IMG/VR virus record: IMGVR_UViG_3300033146_004198
Span: 1-31,372 of that record
Source of the DNA: a virus
Taxonomy: Duplodnaviria; Caudoviricetes
Direction: 5' to 3' (one strand)
DNA: 31,372 nt
Positions 2,770 to 31,372 of the stretch are shown in pieces. Within the stretch, counting starts at the first letter, position 1, and each line of letters starts with the position of its first letter. The position numbers and the translations under genes are program-made. The notes beneath the pieces were generated by a model, which worked only from the letters and a program-made list of their open reading frames with translations, ran no database searches and had not been told where the DNA came from.

Positions 2770-3058
2770 ATCTAAATCCTACATTGTATTTTTCATCCAA
2801 TCTTCTTATTATAACTCTTTGTGCATGATTATCAATCTGTAATCCTTCAAGTTTATTTCCATTTTTGAATAAGTTAAAATATATATCATCTAGACTTATT
2901 TCTCTTTTTTCTTGAGGTTTATTTTTTTCTTTTTCTAACTCTTCTATTTCTAACTCTACTAATAGTATTTGTTTATGTGTTTTAACTTCTATTTTTTCAG
3001 CTCTCATATAAGCTAACCTATCTTGTTCTGTCATGTTGTTTGCATCTGTAATTGTCAT
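2762..3058 (-). CDS. Hypothetical early protein
   Basis: 98-aa ORF with an AAGGA RBS and a promoter at 3074-3103. Confidence 0.75.
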   Translation of the reverse strand: MTITDANNMTEQDRLAYMRAEKIEVKTHKQILLVELEIEELEKEKNKPQEKREISLDDIYFNLFKNGNKLEGLQIDNHAQRVIIRRLDEKYNVGFRYV

Positions 3059-3073
3059 CTCATTTCCTTTTTG

Positions 3074-3151
3074 TTTGTTTTCTTATACTCATTATACAAC
3101 ATTTTTTATTAATTTATTTTAATTTTCACTTTTTTTTCAAATTCTTTTAAA
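3074..3151 (-). promoter_or_regulatory. Early promoter cassette
   Basis: 3074-3103 is identical to 7920-7949, and 3091-3151 is nearly identical to 654-714. Confidence 0.8.
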
Positions 3152-3421
3152 TTTCCCCTCTTTTTAACACAACATCTTCTGCATATAATGGTTTTGTCGG
3201 CTGAAAATAGGGAGTTGAATGTAAATAAAACAAATAAGTATAAAATAACCAATGTTTGCACATTGTTGATTTTATATAGCAAGAAAACACAAGAAAACAA
3301 CAAAAAGGCTTTTTTTTCTCTCTGATAATAACAACAATTAACAAAAAGGTTTTTATTTATAATGTAAAATATTAATAATAAATGTGTATTTTTATATTTT
3401 ATGTTTTTTTAATACCATTAA

Positions 3422-3634
3422 TATTTATTTTTAATACCATTATTTCTCATAGAACAAACATATATATATAGATAATGTATTTATATGGTAGATAATGTTA
3501 CTGGTATTTATTTTTAATACCATTATTTCTCATAGAACAACAATATATATATATAGATAATGTATTTATATGGTAGATAATGTTACTGGTATTTATTTTT
3601 AATACCATTATTTCTCATAGAACAACAATATATA
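3422..3634. repeat. Tandem repeat, ~84-bp unit, 2.5 copies
   Basis: Units start at 3422, 3505 and 3590 (TATTTATTTTTAATACCATTATTTCTCATAGAACAA...) and differ mainly in a TA run. Confidence 0.95.
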
Positions 3635-3859
3635 TTGTAAATAAAAAAAATTGGAACGTAAATAAAAGAAATAACTGATGATAAAGAATTAACTGATAAA
3701 ACTGATAAAACTAACTAAATATAATAAAAAATTTTTAATTTTTTTGCTATATGAAAGAAATAAATAATTTTTGCATGTTGTTCTACTACATTTTTAACAA
3801 CAATAACAACAATCTTACTTTCTCTTTTTATTAAAATAGTAATTAATCATAAATTATCA

Positions 3860-4354
3860 AACATTACCTAAACCAAAGGTGAGGTCTTAAAGTCCCTGAT
3901 AGCAGTTAGAATAGCCATTATTGAAAAAAGCTTAGGTGAGGTCTTAGGTGAGGTCTTCAAATGCCTCTATATAGGGTCTAACAGCAACTTTTTCTTAAGA
4001 CCTCACCTAAAAAGTGTCCAACTTCTTATATATTTTATATTTTTTATCTTTTTTTTCTTTTTTTTAAACAGTTTAAGTAAAATATATAATTATTTAATAA
4101 AATAAAGTCTAAACCCCTCTCTATGAGATACTTTGAAGACCTCACCTAAGACCTCACCTAAGATTTTTCTTTTTCTCTTAAAATAGTGGCATAAAAGCCT
4201 ATACAATGGACATCTTAGGACATTACCTAAAACATTACCTAAAGCTCTTAAAAAAAAGAGAGAATTAGCCCTTATTTTTTTAAAAAAAGAGTAGTTGTAG
4301 TTGTAGCAGAGGGATTTGAGTAGAAAAAAAAGACATTACCTAGACCTCACCTAA
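3860..4354. other. Putative replication origin with 12-bp iterons GAC(C/A)T(C/T)ACCTAA
   Basis: About 11 copies: 3860, 3876(-), 3932(-), 3944(-), 3999, 4138, 4150, 4219, 4231, 4332, 4343. A 31-bp perfect inverted repeat (3931-3961/4132-4162) flanks an AT-rich core. Confidence 0.75.
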
Positions 4355-4545
4355 ATTTTAGCACCATTTTCAAACTCTTATAAAATTGCTAAATGGAGAA
4401 AATTAACAGTTTTGTAACAAAAAACCCATAATTTTAAAGCATCAACAAGATTTAAGCCATTTTTAGTTGAATTTTAACAGTTTTTATTTATATTATTAGC
4501 AAGAATAATAGCTTATTTTTGTTGTTAAAGTATAAAAATATTAAA

Positions 4546-4583
4546 CTTAAAATAACCTTAAGTTTTTCTTAATTTAATCTTAA
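4546..4583. promoter_or_regulatory. CTTAA x4 at exact 11-bp spacing (OmpR/PhoB-like direct-repeat geometry)
   Basis: CTTAA occurs at 4546, 4557, 4568 and 4579. Confidence 0.4.
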
Positions 4584-5024
4584 GTTTTAAAATTAAATTA
4601 TTACGTTCCAATTTTTTTTATTAAAGACATGCAAAAATTTTTTATCTCTTTTCTTGTTCCAATTTTTTTATTGTTGTTCCATGAGAAATAATCATATTGA
4701 AAAAAGATGTGCAAAAATTATTTATTTTATTAAGGGTTGTTGTTCCACCAAAAGACTTATTTGATTAATTGTTTGTTCTCATAAACAAAATAGCTTTTTT
4801 ATTAAACAAAATAATGATTAAAAAATAACCATTTTTATTAACTGTTGTTGTTCTCCCATATAAAAATTACTTTATTAATGTAATAGTATTAAATATAAAA
4901 ATAATTTTTATATATTGTTCTACTACAAAACAAAAACCCATTTACAAACTGATGATATAAATATATCAATAAAAACCTTTTTAAAATTAATACAATTATT
5001 TAAGTTATAAATAAAAACTGTTTT

Positions 5025-5043
5025 GATAGTGATAATCATTATC
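5025..5043. promoter_or_regulatory. Fur box 1
   Basis: GATAGTGATAATCATTATC, 18/19 match to the consensus GATAATGATAATCATTATC. Confidence 0.75.
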
Positions 5044-5494
5044 GAAGAATAATAGAAATAACATGTTGTGATTTCATATTTCAGTATATTTAAATAGCCT
5101 TTTAAAGAGCTTTTTTATTATTGTTACTAAAATACACACATAAAAAGTATTTTATTAACAATAAATTTAACAATAATAAAAACTGATTTTTAAGTATTAT
5201 TATAGAAATATAAAAATAAAAAGCTATTTAAGATAAGAATAAGCCCATTACAAGGCAAATACTATTTTATATATTAACTGCTGCCAGTTTCAAAAGAATA
5301 TTTGTTTAAGACCTTTATTCAAAAAAAAGCGTTTTATTTAGTATAATTATTATATTTAATAAAAAGATTTTTATTCTCTGATAATAAATGTAATAATAAA
5401 TACCTTTTTATTTAGTATAATTATTAGGTATAAAAAAAACACCTTTTTGTTAATGTAGTAATTTTGTAGTAATTTAATTTTTAAAAATCTATTT

Positions 5495-5513
5495 GATAAT
5501 AATAATCATTATC
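5495..5513. promoter_or_regulatory. Fur box 2
   Basis: GATAATAATAATCATTATC, 18/19 match. Confidence 0.75.
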
Positions 5514-5872
5514 GATAAAGATAAAACAGTTTTTATTCTATGATAGTATTAATAGTATTAAAAATCTTTTTATTTATATTAGTTATATTGTTTAAGAAAA
5601 AATTAAGTTTTATTGTGTTACATATTTACACATATTAAAAACCTTTTTATTTGTTGTAATAATATATGCAAAAATTATTTTTATATTCTGATGATATAAT
5701 ATTTGTATAGTTTCTTAAGCTAATATACTAATAATATATATTAAACAAAACTCTTTTTGTTTATGTTATAATTATCAGAGAATTAAATAGCAGTTTATTT
5801 AGTGTTAGTAATTACAGTAATTAAATATCTTTTTGTATAGTGAATATGAATAAGAATAAAATACTCTTTCTC

Positions 5873-5891
5873 GATAATGATTATTATTATC
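5873..5891. promoter_or_regulatory. Fur box 3
   Basis: GATAATGATTATTATTATC; reverse complement is an 18/19 match. Confidence 0.75.
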
Positions 5892-6157
5892 AATAAAGAA
5901 AAATATATTTGTTTATAGTAATTATATTAGATAATAAATAGGTTTTTATTCTGTGTTAATTATATGGTATAATAAATAGCATTTTATTTAGTATGAGAAC
6001 AACAACCCTTAAAAGCTTTTTTATTCTTATTGTTAAATGTATTAAATAAAAACCTTTTTGTTTATATATGTGAGAGATATGGAAGTTATATAACTAATTA
6101 AAAAGCTTTTTATTTAATATATATATTATTAGTAATAAATAACTTTTTTGTTGTAAC

Positions 6158-6176
6158 GATAATGATTATTATTATC
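6158..6176. promoter_or_regulatory. Fur box 4
   Basis: GATAATGATTATTATTATC; reverse complement is an 18/19 match. Confidence 0.75.
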
Positions 6177-6258
6177 AACAAACTTATTTAAAAAGATTTT
6201 TATTTAATATATTATCATGGTTAATTAAAAGCTTATTAAAAAGCTTATTTATTTAAAC

Positions 6259-6277
6259 GATAATAACAATCAATATC
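6259..6277. promoter_or_regulatory. Fur-like box 5
   Basis: GATAATAACAATCAATATC, 16/19 match. Confidence 0.6.
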
Positions 6278-6400
6278 AAATAGATATTTATTTATATATT
6301 AAGTATTAGAATTAATAAAAAGATTTTTTGTTTTGTAGTAGAACAATATGTTAAATAAATTTATTTTTTATGGGAACATAAACAGTTTATTAAAATCTTT

Positions 6401-6444
6401 TTTATTTATTATTTATTTATTATTTATTTATTATTTATTTATTG
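6401..6444. repeat. 11-bp tandem repeat (TTTATTTATTA)x4
   Basis: Units start at 6401, 6412, 6423 and 6434. Confidence 0.9.
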
Positions 6445-6762
6445 TTTAATTAAATAAGTTTTTGTTGAGTGTTAAGACTACCCCACCCTAGAAATAGTTT
6501 TTGGGTATGGGGAAATTAGCCAAAATATAATCTGAAGATTTTAAGTCCATATCCTTTTGGAGTATACAATAAATATTTATTTAATTATATACCCAGGAAT
6601 AACACAAGTAACTGTTATCAAACAAATATTTATTAAGTGAGTAATTAGTTGAATTAAACTTTTATTTGATTACAAGGCATTATAGAGGTATAAATAAATA
6701 GTATTTTTATTTAATTAATAGAACATCAAACAAGAAAGAACAAAAATCCTTATAATTTAAAC

Positions 6763-6781
6763 GATAATAACAATCAATATC
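6763..6781. promoter_or_regulatory. Fur-like box 6
   Basis: GATAATAACAATCAATATC, identical to box 5 including the upstream ATTTAAAC. Confidence 0.6.
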
Positions 6782-6836
6782 AATAAGAAAGAAAGATTTT
6801 ACATTATAAAGTATTAAAAAAGAATATATCTTTCTC

Positions 6837-6855
6837 GATAATGATTATTATTATC
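6837..6855. promoter_or_regulatory. Fur box 7
   Basis: GATAATGATTATTATTATC; shares the CTTTCTC and AATAAA flanks with box 3. Confidence 0.75.
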
Positions 6856-6928
6856 AATAAATAGTATTTTTATAATAAAAAGAAAGAAATAATTTTTGCA
6901 TATTGTTCTAAAAAGAAAAAAAAGAAGA

Positions 6929-6957
6929 ATGGTATAAAAAATAAGCTTTTATACCAT
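6929..6957 (-). terminator. Intrinsic terminator after the HNH gene
   Basis: 11-bp stem ATGGTATAAAA/TTTTATACCAT followed by a T-rich tract on the minus strand. Confidence 0.65.
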
Positions 6958-6980
6958 ATAAGTGATTAAATTTTAAACAA

Positions 6981-7901
6981 TTATATTTGTAATTCTTTTA
7001 AAACATATCTAACATACTCTATTTCTTTAAAAATTTGATTTGATTTAGCAATATTTTCTTCAATTATCATAGGAGCTAAATTTTTAAAATTAACAGCAAG
7101 TAGAAAATGTTTTTTCTTTGATAAATTTAACTTAGATAAAGGAAATGAGTGGTCTATATTCCAATATATACCATAGTTATCCCAGTTCATAAGATTATCA
7201 AATTGATTTTCTAAATGTTTTTTTAAATCAGATATAGAACATCCTAAATCTTCTATATGGCTGCCAATCTTTTCAATTTTTTTCTCTTGTATCATACTGT
7301 ATAATCTACTTCTTAAATTCATTTTAAGTTTAAAATTAACATTATCTTTATTTTTATGATAATACTCATTAGAATAATTAGAATTCTTTTTTAAAAATCT
7401 TCTTGTATTTTCTTTATATTTCTCTTTATTATTCTCATAGTAAGGTTTAGAATACCCTTTTCTACAATCTTTACAATAACAATGAAAACCATCTGAAGAT
7501 TTAATATTTGAATGAAAATTTAAAATAATTTTTTTATCTTTACACTTAGCACATAATTTAACAAATTTTTCTTCAAAATCTAATGGTTCTTCTATAATAA
7601 TTTTTTGATTAAACTCATTAAATATAAAAAAAGTTATTTCAGTATCATAATATTCATTATAATTAAACTCAACAAAAATAATATTATCTTGATAAGTTAA
7701 TTCACTCTTAACATATTTTATTATTTCAACTCTTTTATCTAACATTATTTCATATTCAGTTGTTTTTTTAATATCTTTAACATTATCATTATAATCAAAA
7801 CCAAAAATCTTATTTGTTAAACCTATTTCCTCTATAATTATAAAAGAAATCTTTTTTTGTTCTTGTTTCATTGCAAGATACTTATAGTTAGTCTGTGTCA
7901 T
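6981..7901 (-). CDS. HNH-type (EndoVII-like) endonuclease with a zinc ribbon
   Basis: CAKC..SDGFHCYCKDC zinc ribbon and NWDNYGIYWNIDHSFPLS..NFKNLAPM..ENIAKSN HNH core. Confidence 0.85.
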   Translation of the reverse strand: MTQTNYKYLAMKQEQKKISFIIIEEIGLTNKIFGFDYNDNVKDIKKTTEYEIMLDKRVEIIKYVKSELTYQDNIIFVEFNYNEYYDTEITFFIFNEFNQKIIIEEPLDFEEKFVKLCAKCKDKKIILNFHSNIKSSDGFHCYCKDCRKGYSKPYYENNKEKYKENTRRFLKKNSNYSNEYYHKNKDNVNFKLKMNLRSRLYSMIQEKKIEKIGSHIEDLGCSISDLKKHLENQFDNLMNWDNYGIYWNIDHSFPLSKLNLSKKKHFLLAVNFKNLAPMIIEENIAKSNQIFKEIEYVRYVLKELQI

Positions 7902-8014
7902 TTGTAATCCTTTGTTTTTTTTGTTTTCTTATACTCATTATACAACATTAAAAATAAAAGTGTTCTTAATTTTAAAAGAATTTGAAAAAAACTTAAAATA
8001 ATTAAAAAAAACAT
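7898..8014 (-). CDS. Small hydrophobic peptide, 38 aa (not in ORF track)
   Basis: MFFLIILSFFQILLKLRTLLFLMLYNEYKKTKKTKDYK. It has AAGGA 8 nt upstream, a TATAAT near 8047-8052, and a TGA overlapping the HNH ATG. Confidence 0.4.
   Translation of the reverse strand: MFFLIILSFFQILLKLRTLLFLMLYNEYKKTKKTKDYK
7920..7949 (-). promoter_or_regulatory. Early-type promoter of the HNH gene
   Basis: 30 bp identical to 3074-3103. Confidence 0.8.
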
Positions 8015-8149
8015 TTTATTTATCCTTTATATGTTATCATATTCCTATTATATAACATTTTTTAATAATTTATTTTAATTTTTAAAAAAACTTTTAATAA
8101 TATAATAAAATATTAATAATAATTATAAAAATCAACTGAAAGAGATAAA

Positions 8150-8638
8150 ATGAAAAAAATAAACTTATTAGATAAACTGGAAAAAGACAATTTAATGAAT
8201 ATTGCTAAAGAATATACAATAAATGGTTTTGATATCATAGAAGCATATAAACTTTTTGTTTCAAAAGTAGCATACAAAAATTTAGAAACAATAAGAAAAA
8301 GAACTAAAGAACTAATGAAAGATAAAGTTTTTATTAATATGATTGAGAATAATAAAATGAATGTTTCTGATTTATATAAAGAAACAACAATTAAATCTTT
8401 ATCTAAACTAAGGGAAATAGTGCTAAATGACTACTATATCAAGTATGATGTGATAAAAGATACAAAGACATTAGATTCATTAGAAATAACACATAAACAA
8501 AGTTATTCTGTAACAGATAAATTAAAAGCAATAGATAAACTTTTGGAAATTTCAAAATTAATTAAATATGAGGAAGATGAAAAATCAGTTGAAGATACTG
8601 GATTTAATTTAATTATAAAATCAATTAATAAAGAATAA
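8150..8638 (+). CDS. terS: Terminase small subunit (putative)
   Basis: Lies directly upstream of TerL and has the DKLKAIDKLLE motif typical of TerS. Confidence 0.75.
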   Translation: MKKINLLDKLEKDNLMNIAKEYTINGFDIIEAYKLFVSKVAYKNLETIRKRTKELMKDKVFINMIENNKMNVSDLYKETTIKSLSKLREIVLNDYYIKYDVIKDTKTLDSLEITHKQSYSVTDKLKAIDKLLEISKLIKYEEDEKSVEDTGFNLIIKSINKE

Positions 8639-8641
8639 TTC

Positions 8642-9913
8642 ATGAACAATGAAAATAAAACAGAAATTTTTCCATTATCTGAAATTTCAATAAAAGTATG
8701 GAACGAAAGAAATGATAATAAAATTTTATGTCTTCAAGGTGCAGTTAGAAGTTCAAAATCTTTTACTGCTAACCTTGTTTTTCTTGAAAAATTAAAAAAT
8801 AAAAGAGGAAATGTATTAATTAGTGGTTTTAGTGCTGATTCTGCTAAGAAAAATATAATTCCTGAACTTGAAACATTATTAAATACAGAATTTAGAAACC
8901 ATAATAGTGCAAAAGGTGAATATTTAACAATTCCTATTAAAGAATATAAACATATTAAGATATATGTAAAAGGTGCTGGTAAAAATGGAGATGAAAAGAA
9001 GATTCAAGGTATTACTCTATTAGCTTGGTATGCTGATGAACTTGCAACTTATTCAAAACTTTTTTTTGATATGACTTTAACAAGATTATCTTTAAAAAAT
9101 TCTTTTTCTATTTGGACTTTAAACCCTGAATCACCTTCTCATTGGTTAAAAAAATGGTTAGATAAAGAAGACCATCCTGATAAATTTATTAAAACATATA
9201 AATATACACTTGATGATAACCTTAGTTTAGATGAAAATTATAAAAATCAATTAAAAACTTCATTTAGTGGTCATTTTTATGATAGAATGGTATTAGGAAA
9301 ATGGGCTGTTGGTGAAGGTTTAATATTTAATGTTGATAAAATTAATTTTTTAACAGAAGAAGAATTAAATAATAAATTTTTGCACATCAGTAAATTTCTT
9401 TATGAAGATTATGTATCAATAGATTTTGGAACAACAAATTATACTGCTTTTTTACATATAAGAAAACTAATTCCTCAAGATATATACCTTGACCCTGATA
9501 AAAACAATGAAACTTATGCTGAATATTATGTTTTAGAAGAGTATTATAAGAACAAACGTTCTCCCAGTCAATATGTTGCTGATTTAAAAGAATTTATTAA
9601 AGATAAAGATATAAAAAGTATAATAATAGATCCTGCTTCTGCTCACTTTAGGCAAGAAGTACTTGTTGCTGGTATAAAAAACCTATTAAAGGCAAAAAAT
9701 GATGTAAAAAAAGGTATTTTATTAACACAAAGATTTATAGAAAATGGAAATGTATTTATTAGTCTTAAATGTAAAGAATTAAAAGATGAATTACATGGTT
9801 ATAGTTGGGATGAAAAGAAAATAGATACTCCAATAAAAGTAAATGACCATGCTTGTGATACTCTGAGGTATGGTATATTTACAACCTCTTCTTTTAGTTA
9901 TCAATCTTTATAA
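8642..9913 (+). CDS. terL: Terminase large subunit, PBSX-like
   Basis: Walker A GAVRSSKS, Walker B WYADE, TLNPESPSHW, and nuclease motifs IDFG, DPAS and NDHACDTLRY. Confidence 0.96.
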   Translation: MNNENKTEIFPLSEISIKVWNERNDNKILCLQGAVRSSKSFTANLVFLEKLKNKRGNVLISGFSADSAKKNIIPELETLLNTEFRNHNSAKGEYLTIPIKEYKHIKIYVKGAGKNGDEKKIQGITLLAWYADELATYSKLFFDMTLTRLSLKNSFSIWTLNPESPSHWLKKWLDKEDHPDKFIKTYKYTLDDNLSLDENYKNQLKTSFSGHFYDRMVLGKWAVGEGLIFNVDKINFLTEEELNNKFLHISKFLYEDYVSIDFGTTNYTAFLHIRKLIPQDIYLDPDKNNETYAEYYVLEEYYKNKRSPSQYVADLKEFIKDKDIKSIIIDPASAHFRQEVLVAGIKNLLKAKNDVKKGILLTQRFIENGNVFISLKCKELKDELHGYSWDEKKIDTPIKVNDHACDTLRYGIFTTSSFSYQSL

Positions 9914-14938: not shown

Positions 14939-15187
14939 ATGATACCAACTAACACATATTTAATAGATATAAAAACACAAAAAATTTTCACAGTCCCACT
15001 TAAATTAGTTCCTTCTCTATTATCAAGTTATAAAGATTTCAGAATTTTACAAGATTATAAACACGAATTAGCAGAAAAAGTAAAAGAAAAATTTGAAGAA
15101 AAGAAACAAGCTGAACAAATTAAACCAAAGAGGAAATACACTAAAAGAAAAGATAAAATAAAACAAGGTTTAGAAAATGAAAAATAA
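14939..15187 (+). CDS. Hypothetical basic protein
   Basis: 82 aa with an AAGGA RBS and a KPKRKYTKRK basic tail. Confidence 0.75.
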   Translation: MIPTNTYLIDIKTQKIFTVPLKLVPSLLSSYKDFRILQDYKHELAEKVKEKFEEKKQAEQIKPKRKYTKRKDKIKQGLENEK

Positions 15188-15326
15188 AATATTAGAAAAA
15201 TTAAAAGATAAAAGAACAAGGTGTATAACATATACAAGAGTAATGGGATACCATAGACCAGTTGAAAGTTTTAATTTAGGGAAAACTGGTGAACACAAAG
15301 AAAGAAAACAATTTATAGAAAAATAA
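15177..15326 (+). CDS. nrdD: Stand-alone NrdD C-terminal glycyl-radical peptide, 49 aa (not in ORF track)
   Basis: MKNKILEKLKDKRTRCITYTRVMGYHRPVESFNLGKTGEHKERKQFIEK contains the RVxGY glycyl-radical motif and the FNxGKxxExxER tail. It has an AAGG RBS. Confidence 0.9.
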   Translation: MKNKILEKLKDKRTRCITYTRVMGYHRPVESFNLGKTGEHKERKQFIEK

Positions 15327-24703: not shown

Positions 24704-25465
24704 ATGATAGAATTATATAGGTTTAAAAATGGAAACAGTGAATATTATTATACATCTTCTAATAATGAATTTACAGTTGATAATATTGATTCAGTTATGG
24801 ATAATGTCACCTTTTTACCCAGAGCAATTAAAAGAAAAGAATTAAATATAGATGGTGTTACAGAGGATAATTTTGAATTTATAGCACCAATTTCACTAAA
24901 ACCACTTGATGAATTTATATATATAAATCCTAATAATATTATATGGGTTTATTTATATAATGAAGATGGTAATTTACTGTATGTTGGTCAAATATCTGAT
25001 TTAAAATATAATTTAGATAAACATTCAATGAATGTAAAGGTTAATAATATTGTAGCTTTTTTATCTAATAATATACCTAAATATACTTATTCTAGTTCTT
25101 GTTCTTTTGATTTATTTGATGAAGATTGTTCTTTAAATAGAGAAAATTATAAAGTTGTTTTTGATAATCTTAATTATACAATAGATAGTAATCTTCAAAT
25201 AACAATAGTTAATACTGAAACAGTAGATTATTTTAATAATGGTTATTTAATAATTGATGGGCAAAATAACTTTATTATAAGTCATAATGATAATATAATA
25301 AAGTTATTGTATCCAATTAAAACTCAAGATTTTTCAGGTGATATAGAAATATATCCTGGTTGTAATAAAAATATAAATAATTGTTTAAATAAGTTTAATA
25401 ATTTAAAAAACTTTGGAGGATTTCCTTTTGTACCAAAAGCTAACCCTTTTCAGAATTTAACATAA
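24704..25465 (+). CDS. Tail hub protein, BR0599/DUF2163 family
   Basis: IELYRF, C..DLFDEDC, and YPGCNK....C.NKFNNLKNFGGFPFVP..NPF motifs. Confidence 0.92.
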   Translation: MIELYRFKNGNSEYYYTSSNNEFTVDNIDSVMDNVTFLPRAIKRKELNIDGVTEDNFEFIAPISLKPLDEFIYINPNNIIWVYLYNEDGNLLYVGQISDLKYNLDKHSMNVKVNNIVAFLSNNIPKYTYSSSCSFDLFDEDCSLNRENYKVVFDNLNYTIDSNLQITIVNTETVDYFNNGYLIIDGQNNFIISHNDNIIKLLYPIKTQDFSGDIEIYPGCNKNINNCLNKFNNLKNFGGFPFVPKANPFQNLT

Positions 25466-29287: not shown

Positions 29288-29752
29288 ATGATTATTTTTA
29301 TTTTATTTAAAAATCCAAAGAAATGGTATCAAAAATTGATACTGTTTTTATTTGGTGTTAAGTATTTTCATTGTGAATTTGTATTAAAAACAAATAATAA
29401 AGAATATTTTTTAAGAACAAATTTTGAAGGAAATGAACTTAATGAAAATTATATTTCTTATAATTCAAAAGATATTGATATCATAAAATATAAAATTAAT
29501 TTAGAACAAGAGAAAAAAATATTAAATTATATGGTAGAAACACATAATAAAAAATATAATTATAAAGATATAATAAAAACTATACTTTTTAACCTAAATA
29601 ATGATAATAATTATAATACTATTAAACAAGAAAAAAGTTATAATTGTTTTCAAAATTTAAAGAATATTTTATTTATTATTAATAGAAAATTATATATAAA
29701 TTTGAAATCAAAAGAAAAATTTTACTTTAAAGAAGAGAAAAATGGAAATTGA
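29288..29752 (+). CDS. Permuted papain-like (YiiX/NlpC-P60) protein, putative
   Basis: His before Cys (YFHCEF..KKYNY..SYNCFQ). The likely start is ATG 29288. Confidence 0.6.
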   Translation: MIIFILFKNPKKWYQKLILFLFGVKYFHCEFVLKTNNKEYFLRTNFEGNELNENYISYNSKDIDIIKYKINLEQEKKILNYMVETHNKKYNYKDIIKTILFNLNNDNNYNTIKQEKSYNCFQNLKNILFIINRKLYINLKSKEKFYFKEEKNGN

Positions 29753-30318: not shown

Positions 30319-31372
30319 TTAAAATATATCTATATAAGAAAAATCAATCTTCATACATTTTTTTGTCATCTTATATTTAGGGTGATACTGACTTTTAATT
30401 TTACATTCAAACAGTTCTTCAACCTTATCAGCTTTATATTGTGAAGTTTTCTTAAAGTTATTATCTTTACTTTCTTGAATTAATACTCTAAAAAGTTCTC
30501 CTGGTCTAACTATATATAAAAAACTATTATTATCTTGTACAGAAACATGAACAAAATCTGAATATCTTTTATCATAATCATTATTTAAAGAATCGATTGC
30601 TAACTCTTGTAATCTTTCTTTAAAAAACTCTTTAAGATTAGTCATTAAATCATTATTCATACCAATTCTATTTTCAGAATGAACTTTTATAAGAAAATTA
30701 TGTGCTTCAATATCACTTTTTCTTTTTCCCATTTCTTTGTATCTATTTATTTCTTTTTTTACCTGACTTAATATATAATGTTTTAATATATTAATATAAG
30801 AGTTAGCACCTATTTTTTTAAATTCAGGTAAATCATCTATTCTTTTTGCTTCAGGAAGTTCAAATATAGTTAATCTTTCTTGAATTTGAGAATCAACATA
30901 ACCAGTCACAGATGAACTTTTTTCAGCACTCAACATAATCTTAGCAAACATATCAATTTCAACATTCATTCTACCCTTTGGGTTAATTGAAGCATAATTT
31001 GTTATATCTTTCATTTCTGATTTAAATATTTTAAATTCATCTTCAAATAAAAACATTTTACCTACTAAATTTTCAGGAGTTACAGCAGATCTTGCTTCTA
31101 ACATTGAAGCAAAACTTGGAACTTTTGCAGCTAAACCAATATCTTTATAACAATCCATCCAAAAACTCTTTCCAAAGTTAGCAGGTAATATAAAATTAAA
31201 GAAACTTGTCTTTCTACTGGATGCAAACATACTTGCAACTATTAATTTATTAAATAAATCAAAATATTTATTAAATTTAATATATTCTGTTAAAACAGAT
31301 TCAGCACTTTTTAAATCTTCATTACTTAATTCAGGGATAGGTAAATAATTTATATCATTATTAAAGATAAGA
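30319..31372 (-). CDS. 3' part of the SF3/D5-like helicase (ATPase domain)
   Basis: Walker A-like LPANFGKS, Walker B MFLFEDE, motif B'-like INPKG and motif C-like KIMLSAE. In frame with 623..1. Confidence 0.8.
   Translation of the reverse strand, partial: LIFNNDINYLPIPELSNEDLKSAESVLTEYIKFNKYFDLFNKLIVASMFASSRKTSFFNFILPANFGKSFWMDCYKDIGLAAKVPSFASMLEARSAVTPENLVGKMFLFEDEFKIFKSEMKDITNYASINPKGRMNVEIDMFAKIMLSAEKSSSVTGYVDSQIQERLTIFELPEAKRIDDLPEFKKIGANSYINILKHYILSQVKKEINRYKEMGKRKSDIEAHNFLIKVHSENRIGMNNDLMTNLKEFFKERLQELAIDSLNNDYDKRYSDFVHVSVQDNNSFLYIVRPGELFRVLIQESKDNNFKKTSQYKADKVEELFECKIKSQYHPKYKMTKKCMKIDFSYIDIF
31259..31372. repeat. Terminal direct repeat (circular assembly overlap), copy 2
   Basis: Identical to 1-114. 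Confidence 0.97.

Follow-up and report, generated by a model that had tools for sequence, protein, structure and literature searches.

Seven near-consensus Fur boxes between the likely replication origin and the terminase genes of an uncultured tailed phage: probable host Fur sites and a possible iron-sensitive brake on late functions

The non-coding gap between the early and the virion genes of an uncultured tailed phage contains seven 19-mers that match the classical Fur box at 16 or 18 of 19 positions, and sequence comparison gives good support to the view that they are selected sites of host Fur. This view is based on the conservation of the boxes relative to their flanks, on the presence of Fur and of a like box in candidate hosts, and on the boxes of a close relative, which lie in otherwise unrelated DNA. 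The 19-mers are likely to be bound by the iron-loaded Fur of the host, and it is likely that this phage and its relative tie virion production to the iron state of the host. Tentatively, the boxes are proposed to form a brake, sensitive to iron and to copy number, with which host Fur would restrain the late and packaging programme and which would be lifted by iron loss or by titration.

The stretch of DNA that was analyzed, in the following called the window, comprises 31,372 nt and is the whole of the record IMGVR_UViG_3300033146_004198. A direct repeat of 114 bp is common to both ends, and because the window is also the entire record, it is a complete genome of an uncultured tailed phage. 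Its GC content is about 22%. Early and virion genes point away from each other on either side of a gap of 3.9 kb (3060-6980), which does not contain any ORF of more than 65 aa: the early block, with primase, two sigma-like proteins and HU, runs leftward, and the virion block, with the terminase, capsid, tail and lysis genes, runs rightward. Neither an integrase nor a repressor was found among the 35 ORFs of the window, and therefore timing signals must come from elsewhere. The primase gene crosses the window ends (1-622 and 30319-31258, - strand); in the relative it is a single ORF of 531 aa. A conserved promoter-like sequence with an extended -10 is present at 1475 (- strand), 13300, 14901 and 18251, upstream of a sigma-like gene and three late genes. 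The following Fur boxes were found:

5025..5043, + strand: Fur box 1, 18/19, made up of two 7-1-7 sites that overlap
5495..5513, + strand: Fur box 2, 18/19
5873..5891, - strand: Fur box 3, 18/19, flanks common to box 7 (short duplication)
6158..6176, - strand: Fur box 4, 18/19
6259..6277, + strand: Fur box 5, 16/19, flanks common to box 6
6763..6781, + strand: Fur box 6, 16/19, 448 bp from the terS start when the HNH ORF is left out
6837..6855, - strand: Fur box 7, 18/19, 374 bp from the terS start when the HNH ORF is left out

An earlier note on this DNA had reported seven such 19-mers, and it was verified that all of them are present at the coordinates and with the scores that it gave (five at 18/19, two at 16/19), and in both orientations. 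Sites of this kind do not occur at equal density in shuffled sequence: the Fur 19-mer had 13 strand-matches in the window, compared to 0.15 expected, none of 100 shuffles reached that count, and first-order resampling of the AT-rich gap yielded no Fur site in 60 trials. The enrichment was found only here, the sole other match with at most three mismatches in the window being located within an ORF at 29597; matches with four mismatches were not found outside the known set.

Among co-oriented copies the mean pairwise identity was 0.86 within the box and 0.43–0.47 in the flanks, with a value of 1.0 at the base that follows the box (a G), showing that the box is the conserved unit. All seven co-oriented boxes are preceded by TT and followed by G. 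Seven of the eight CG dinucleotides within 4950-6900 are box ends, in a genome in which CG is ninefold depleted (40 vs. 377 expected in the window; 55 vs. 354 in the relative). The gap contains four of the eight TCGA sites of the genome, all at Fur-box ends. The 19-bp consensus of Escherichia coli can be read as two overlapping 7-1-7 sites occupied by two dimers, according to the available text of PMC11353095. The half-sites of the window were nearer to the Fur 7-1-7 than to the PerR 7-1-7 in 14 of 14 comparisons, and the suggestion that PerR might be the binder is thus disfavoured.

It is very improbable that the boxes are bound by a Fur paralogue of the PerR type or by a phage protein, or that they are idle duplications. 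The candidate hosts have one to four Fur-family genes each, two pairs of boxes share flanks, and the terminal G is invariant despite the scarcity of CG, all of which would fit such readings; against them stand the half-site comparisons, the end of conservation at the box edge, and the recurrence of the motif in unrelated phages and in front of host feoAB. The asymmetric 22-mer of the window type did not have any match among viral contigs, and a blastn comparison of 4950-6900 with cultured phages gave short, weak matches only.

Two genes of the virion block were considered for the host and for possible users of iron:

15177..15326, + strand: NrdD C-terminal-like peptide of 49 aa, typical of Campylobacterota, a host marker
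24704..25465, + strand: baseplate hub of the BR0599 type, a candidate Fe-S protein with four Cys residues at 133, 142, 220 and 227

The 49-aa peptide stands alone and is 69–83% identical to small Campylobacterota genes; nearly all of its best 80 genome matches are from Sulfurospirillum, Sulfurimonas, Arcobacteraceae, Campylobacter and their kin. The endolysin is 56–57% identical to genes in two genomes of the candidate-host order of Campylobacterota, and on the basis of both genes the host is likely to be a Campylobacterota bacterium. A comparison of the HU gene did not lead to a host identification. The RVxGY of the peptide is presumably the glycyl-radical loop motif of the NrdD C-terminus, and the peptide may represent a spare-part radical domain for the class III ribonucleotide reductase of the host; a link to anaerobic dNTP synthesis is possible. 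The Fe-S reading of the hub is assumed by analogy to gpL.

Fur-family genes were detected in all five candidate-host genomes. In these genomes 23 loci had at most three mismatches to the box, six of which were scored as intergenic, and their neighbours included feoA-feoB, an ABC solute-binding gene together with an imelysin, and a HypB-like GTPase. A like box thus precedes feoAB, and another lies between the solute-binding gene and the imelysin. The family of Arcobacteraceae type around genome G002 was represented by 61 genomes, of which 13 had any site with at most two mismatches; a single site had one mismatch. Among the neighbours were COX1 and transport genes, and several further host sites stand in front of COX1 or of unassigned genes. 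Five phage boxes at 18/19 are therefore nearer to the consensus than nearly all host sites, as counted by mismatches and not by affinity. The terminal base is G in all seven phage boxes and mostly A in host-type sites (14 of 25 ends). The phage boxes are like the bacterial Fur box of PMC11353095 (available part) in their match of 16–18 of 19, their two-dimer architecture and their form, which is the same as before feoAB of a candidate-host genome; they differ in that seven copies are packed into 1.8 kb, none of them over the promoter of a protein gene, with an invariant terminal G and inside a 37-38-bp array.

The surroundings of the boxes contain additional features:

3422..3635: tandem repeat with 2.5 copies of an 85-bp unit
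3861..4353: iteron-like repeats of 12 bp, present in either orientation, the likely replication origin
4786..6405: about 35 degenerate palindromes of 18 bp, AATAAAAA-N2-TTTTTATT, arrayed with a period of 37-38 bp and with poorly conserved spacers
5692, 5764 and 5965 (5692..5973), + strand: extended -10-like sites TGnTATAAT in the array, directed at terS
6929..6957: 11-bp hairpin (z -4.7 and -6.3) separating the gap from the HNH gene, a likely two-way terminator
6981..7901, - strand: HNH/endonuclease VII-like gene between the boxes and terS, without counterpart in the relative
8114-8128, + strand: weak 7-1-7 site closely following a TATAAT and 21 nt upstream of the start codon of terS
8150..8638, + strand: presumed terminase small subunit gene (terS), so named because it precedes terL; it shares 49% identity with the gene of the relative and has no family match
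8642..9913, + strand: terminase large subunit gene (terL)

The minimum of the GC skew is near 4500-5000. The array, whose units were chosen by hand, is real, as its autocorrelation was 0.437 at a lag of 37, compared to a maximum of 0.405 in 200 shuffles. Its period corresponds to about 3.5 helical turns, and it adjoins the origin. Array and HU gene occur together in the window, and the relative has neither. The palindrome was not enriched in the five candidate-host genomes (three sites vs. three control sites), a second array was not found, and look-ups of two early proteins of 101 aa and 98 aa did not reveal a usable candidate for an array-binding protein. The repeat does not have the features of a CRISPR array; it consists of degenerate 18-bp dyads, and there is no cas gene among the 35 ORFs and no Rfam match. 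A second repeated motif, of 20 bp, is found at 1513 (-), 3766, 4719 (-), 4903, 5676 (-), 6358 (-) and 6891, with six copies in the gap and a single one ahead of a sigma-like gene. Five Fur boxes had been described as occupying spacer slots of the 38-bp array; they do lie inside it, but without a common register, starting 15, 18, 24, 24 and 61 bp past the start of the preceding palindrome.

The three -10-like sites and the terminator-like hairpin, together with the proximity of boxes and iteron region in both phages, could indicate that Fur controls a non-coding transcript, running from the array through boxes 3–7 to the hairpin, or initiation at the iterons 670 bp away. This was regarded as improbable. 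About one TGnTATAAT per strand is expected by chance from the base composition, so that three sites are a weak signal, sigma-70-like sites are not enriched (53 vs. 54.6), and one promoter cannot overlap seven boxes spread over 1.8 kb. A known structured ncRNA family was not found, Rfam having given no match at E<=1 across 3000-8200; the GC-richer stretch 6465-6610 showed only marginal folding (z -1.4 and -2.1), and larger z-scores within the gap are confounded by the DNA palindromes.

The boxes of the window genome are not classical operators. None of the seven lies over the -35/-10 region of a regulated gene or overlaps the promoter of a protein gene, and for the strong boxes the earlier observation that they avoid phage promoters thus holds. 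The weak site at 8114-8128 had been missed at that time; with P about 0.16 for such a site somewhere in the short intergenic regions it is within chance. The gene starts nearest to the boxes are those of terS, at 1.3 kb, and of the gene starting at 3058, at 2.0 kb; on the terS side the HNH gene and the likely terminator intervene. The boxes had been said to have no adjacent gene. This is true for the present arrangement, but the isolation is in part due to the HNH gene, which the relative does not have. When its ORF is left out, the last two boxes are 374 and 448 bp upstream of terS, compared to 293-374 bp in five other viral loci and 125 and 319 bp in the relative.

The relative (genome G001, locus L001) has a terL that is 73% identical to that of the window, and it is the sole close relative in the collections searched. 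Scans of viral and metagenome contigs with terL, a terL alignment and a primase alignment retrieved only this genome and one fragment of 1.3 kb, it alone matched the module pattern, and a terL profile did not have a hit in 184 Arcobacteraceae-family genomes. Three additional candidates (G363, G470 and G041) were rejected, because their apparent matches were an endolysin gene or AT-rich noise. The gap of the relative is unrelated in sequence to that of the window except for short AT-rich matches, and the NrdD-like peptide is also missing. Nevertheless, 19-mers at 18/19 are present at 4093 and 4287 (0.04 expected), and nine 7-1-7 boxes with at most one mismatch were found, three of them before terS and six in the virion operon:

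4092, 4286 and 4343 of the relative: boxes upstream of terS; the one at 4343 covers the -35 position of a promoter with a TATAAT
6356: box after terL
9124, 13510 and 16417: boxes ending 21-30 nt before late-gene start codons, just ahead of ribosome-binding sites
11361, 11850 and 13510: boxes in coding sequence, the first two inside the RusA and scaffold genes, 13510 in the end of the preceding ORF

At terS of the relative, one box thus has the position of a classical operator. In pairwise alignments the three orthologues of the window have gaps at or beside the boxes in the coding sequence. A 16-bp A/T-tract element precedes seven of the nine boxes at a fixed spacing, and most copies are co-oriented with late transcription. 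Some 20 copies of this element are found on the late strand between 3871 and 18626, before ribosome-binding sites and inside terL, terS, RusA, scaffold and one more gene, often fused to a Fur 7-1-7; it also stands alone, without a box, before and inside late genes. The layout suits cis-silencing by operators and roadblocks, and the coding insertions would also fit a position-free sink for Fur. The number of strong sites is alike in the two phages (seven and nine), and their positions are unlike.

The layout of the relative and the recurring position before terS both point at the late and packaging programme, and Fur sites read iron; for this reason a Fur brake on that programme is tentatively favoured. 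In an iron-replete cell Fur would occupy each box with two dimers, up to 14 per genome, and would shut the control region as long as one or a few genomes are present, perhaps spreading along the AT-rich array or compacting it. The brake would lift when iron falls, or once the replicated boxes exceed the Fur pool (700 boxes at 100 genomes, equivalent to up to 1400 dimers); because few dimers fit on one genome, titration can matter only after replication. As a by-product, host iron uptake would then be derepressed, a possible additional benefit that the layout does not require. In the window the boxes would need to exert their effect from afar, be it through compaction or looping, by blocking transcripts of the array, or via the weak terS site. 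The proposal is favoured by the fixed-spacing elements of the relative's seven sites, by the position of the boxes, which have the iteron repeats on one side and the terminase genes on the other, and by the similar distances to terS in other viral loci. It is opposed by several facts: no strong box of the window lies on a promoter, and the only site at a late promoter is weak and within chance; the virion region of the window, unlike that of the relative, is free of boxes; two sigma-like proteins could time the late genes without Fur; and there is only one close relative.

The earlier note had interpreted the boxes as a DNA sponge directed at the host, i.e., boxes without a target in cis that upon replication titrate Fur, derepress iron uptake and thereby feed ribonucleotide reductases and Fe-S proteins. 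As the main function this is unlikely on balance. It would agree with the absence of gene starts within 1.3 kb, the two orientations and irregular spacing, the similar number of strong sites in two phages with different box positions, the close match of the five 18/19 boxes to the consensus relative to the 61 host genomes, and the two candidate iron users encoded. That multicopy sites titrate Fur is established by the FURTA assay (PMC2189734, accessible part), and according to the available text of PMC8599769 modest numbers of decoys have been documented to titrate PhoB and can perturb a bacterial regulon. The likeness to FURTA and to synthetic decoys and sponges is that multicopy high-affinity sites titrate a repressor; those described in the accessible parts of both sources are laboratory constructs, whereas the phage boxes are natural, and titration is assumed here by analogy. 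Several points argue against a sponge. Binding by Fur requires that iron is sufficient in the first place, and the effect would be late, as an incoming genome holds at most 14 dimers. An E. coli cell contains thousands of copies of Fur. The relative has boxes without the NrdD-like peptide, some at operator-like places, and the terminal G of all seven boxes, at a position where host sites mostly have A, indicates that they are not simply sites of maximal affinity. Titration after replication thus follows from the FURTA logic, but iron uptake as its purpose is not favoured over control in cis, given the operator-like boxes and the missing peptide of the relative, the isolation created by the HNH gene, and the activity of Fur at sufficient iron.

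Near-consensus Fur patterns were also present in other viruses. They were found at 94 loci in viral contigs, compared to 33 loci for a reversed control pattern, and 67 of the 94 but none of the 33 lay outside ORFs of at least 70 aa. At least three sites within 1 kb were seen at 16 Fur loci and at none of the controls. The 94 loci are not independent and form 40 groups, one with 34 loci; 23 of the 40 groups have intergenic boxes. A terminase gene was present in the fetched flank of eight of these 23 groups, an uncontrolled count based on 101 of the neighbouring proteins; the flank of two groups was too short. The nearest box was 293–374 bp upstream of terS at five loci and 350–455 bp upstream of terL at three; one group had its boxes downstream of terS and one more than 2 kb upstream of terL. 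Three unrelated viral contigs have clusters: nine boxes in a tandem array with an 89-bp period (L052, 3001-3564), eight boxes in a 2-kb gap (L068, 2430-3060), and six boxes with at most three mismatches and a period of 55–66 bp (L109).

A comparison of the L052 array with cultured phages led to the injection-stop region of T5 and to phi92-like phages. In T5 (L123, AY587007.1) the copies of direct repeat C contain 7-1-7 sites with one to three mismatches, e.g., one mismatch at 9579 and two mismatches at 9620, and SP01 has a perfect site. It is tempting to speculate, although somewhat doubtful, that many unrelated tailed phages including T5 use Fur-box arrays as a timer driven by replication and at the same time as a DNA sponge: host Fur would check the first genome, and the multiplying copies would soak it up, freeing late genes and host iron uptake together. 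If true, such arrays would be a DNA sponge and timer of natural origin, protein-free and phage-borne, and a candidate host factor could be named for the injection-stop repeats, touching a question that has long been open, namely what brings T5 DNA to a halt at this signal. The recurrence in cultured phages (T5, phi92-like) makes the pattern testable in laboratory E. coli.

The T5 sites also bear on a role at DNA ends, in which abundant host Fur on the DNA that is packaged last and enters first would protect it, pull it, pause it or help the terminase. IHF has such a helping role for terminase at lambda cos, and in headful packaging from a site near terS the DNA just upstream of terS is packaged last, which would apply to the boxes of the window. 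The Fur-like sites in direct repeat C, the similar boxes of phi92-like phages, and the lack in the gap of any of the 36 GANTC and 11 GATC sites of the genome are in line with it. Such a role is nonetheless quite unlikely, because proximity to contig ends (within 500 bp) was not clearly above control (19 of 94 vs. 5 of 33 loci), the boxes within virion genes of the relative, up to 12 kb downstream, would be left unaccounted for, and an iron-dependent protein is an unreliable structural part.

Several known systems resemble parts of the proposed Fur brake. The genes nohA and nohB, which we take to be terminase small-subunit-like genes of cryptic prophages of E. coli K-12, have host Fur sites upstream. 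In the accessible part of PMC2189734 these sites are 233 bp (nohA, gel-shifted) and 133 bp (nohB) away; the likeness is a host Fur site a few hundred bp before a packaging gene, with binding shown for nohA, and the difference is that these are single clusters in defective lambdoid prophages, while here seven sites occur in an intact phage without integrase. At the arsRS promoter of Helicobacter pylori, a member of the likely host's phylum, Fur compacts DNA over several operators that are joined into an iron-dependent repressive complex, as described in the available text of PMC5007355; that region comprises about 200 bp, three operators and one promoter, in contrast to 1.8 kb, seven boxes and no close promoter in the window. 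The repeat region of the T5 injection-stop signal (Repeat Region 3) is alike in its long non-coding repeats, its clustered host-protein sites and its Fur-box-like direct repeat C. The accessible part of the T5 preprint (10.1101/866236) discusses DnaA boxes in this region and does not mention Fur, iron or LexA. Long terminal repeats and an injection in two steps are known features of T5. The stoperators of mycobacteriophage L5 bind the phage repressor in lysogeny. The sites of the relative, which are oriented and located within late genes or between them, resemble them as elongation roadblocks, yet the stoperators are sites of a phage repressor, and here the site belongs to a host metal sensor and no repressor or integrase was found. 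Phage Fur-box arrays, a natural phage Fur sponge or Fur at the T5 injection-stop signal did not turn up in the searched literature, which was thin on subscription journals. If host Fur gates phage DNA or is titrated by it, iron status would feed directly into the development of the phage, and its non-coding DNA would be a device of host takeover. The two phages form a natural experiment, with boxes beside origin and terminase in one and spread through virion genes in the other, even at the cost of protein insertions.

Minor observations concern T5 and its kin. A Fur-like site is present at 228 in the dmp gene near the left end of T5, and a near-perfect one at about 200 in an ORF at the corresponding place of two large viral contigs (L036, L083); these sites may reflect only amino-acid coding. 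Within the injection-stop region (9330-9640), Fur-like copies of direct repeat C, DnaA boxes and a palindrome that presumably corresponds to a LexA SOS box follow one another in series.
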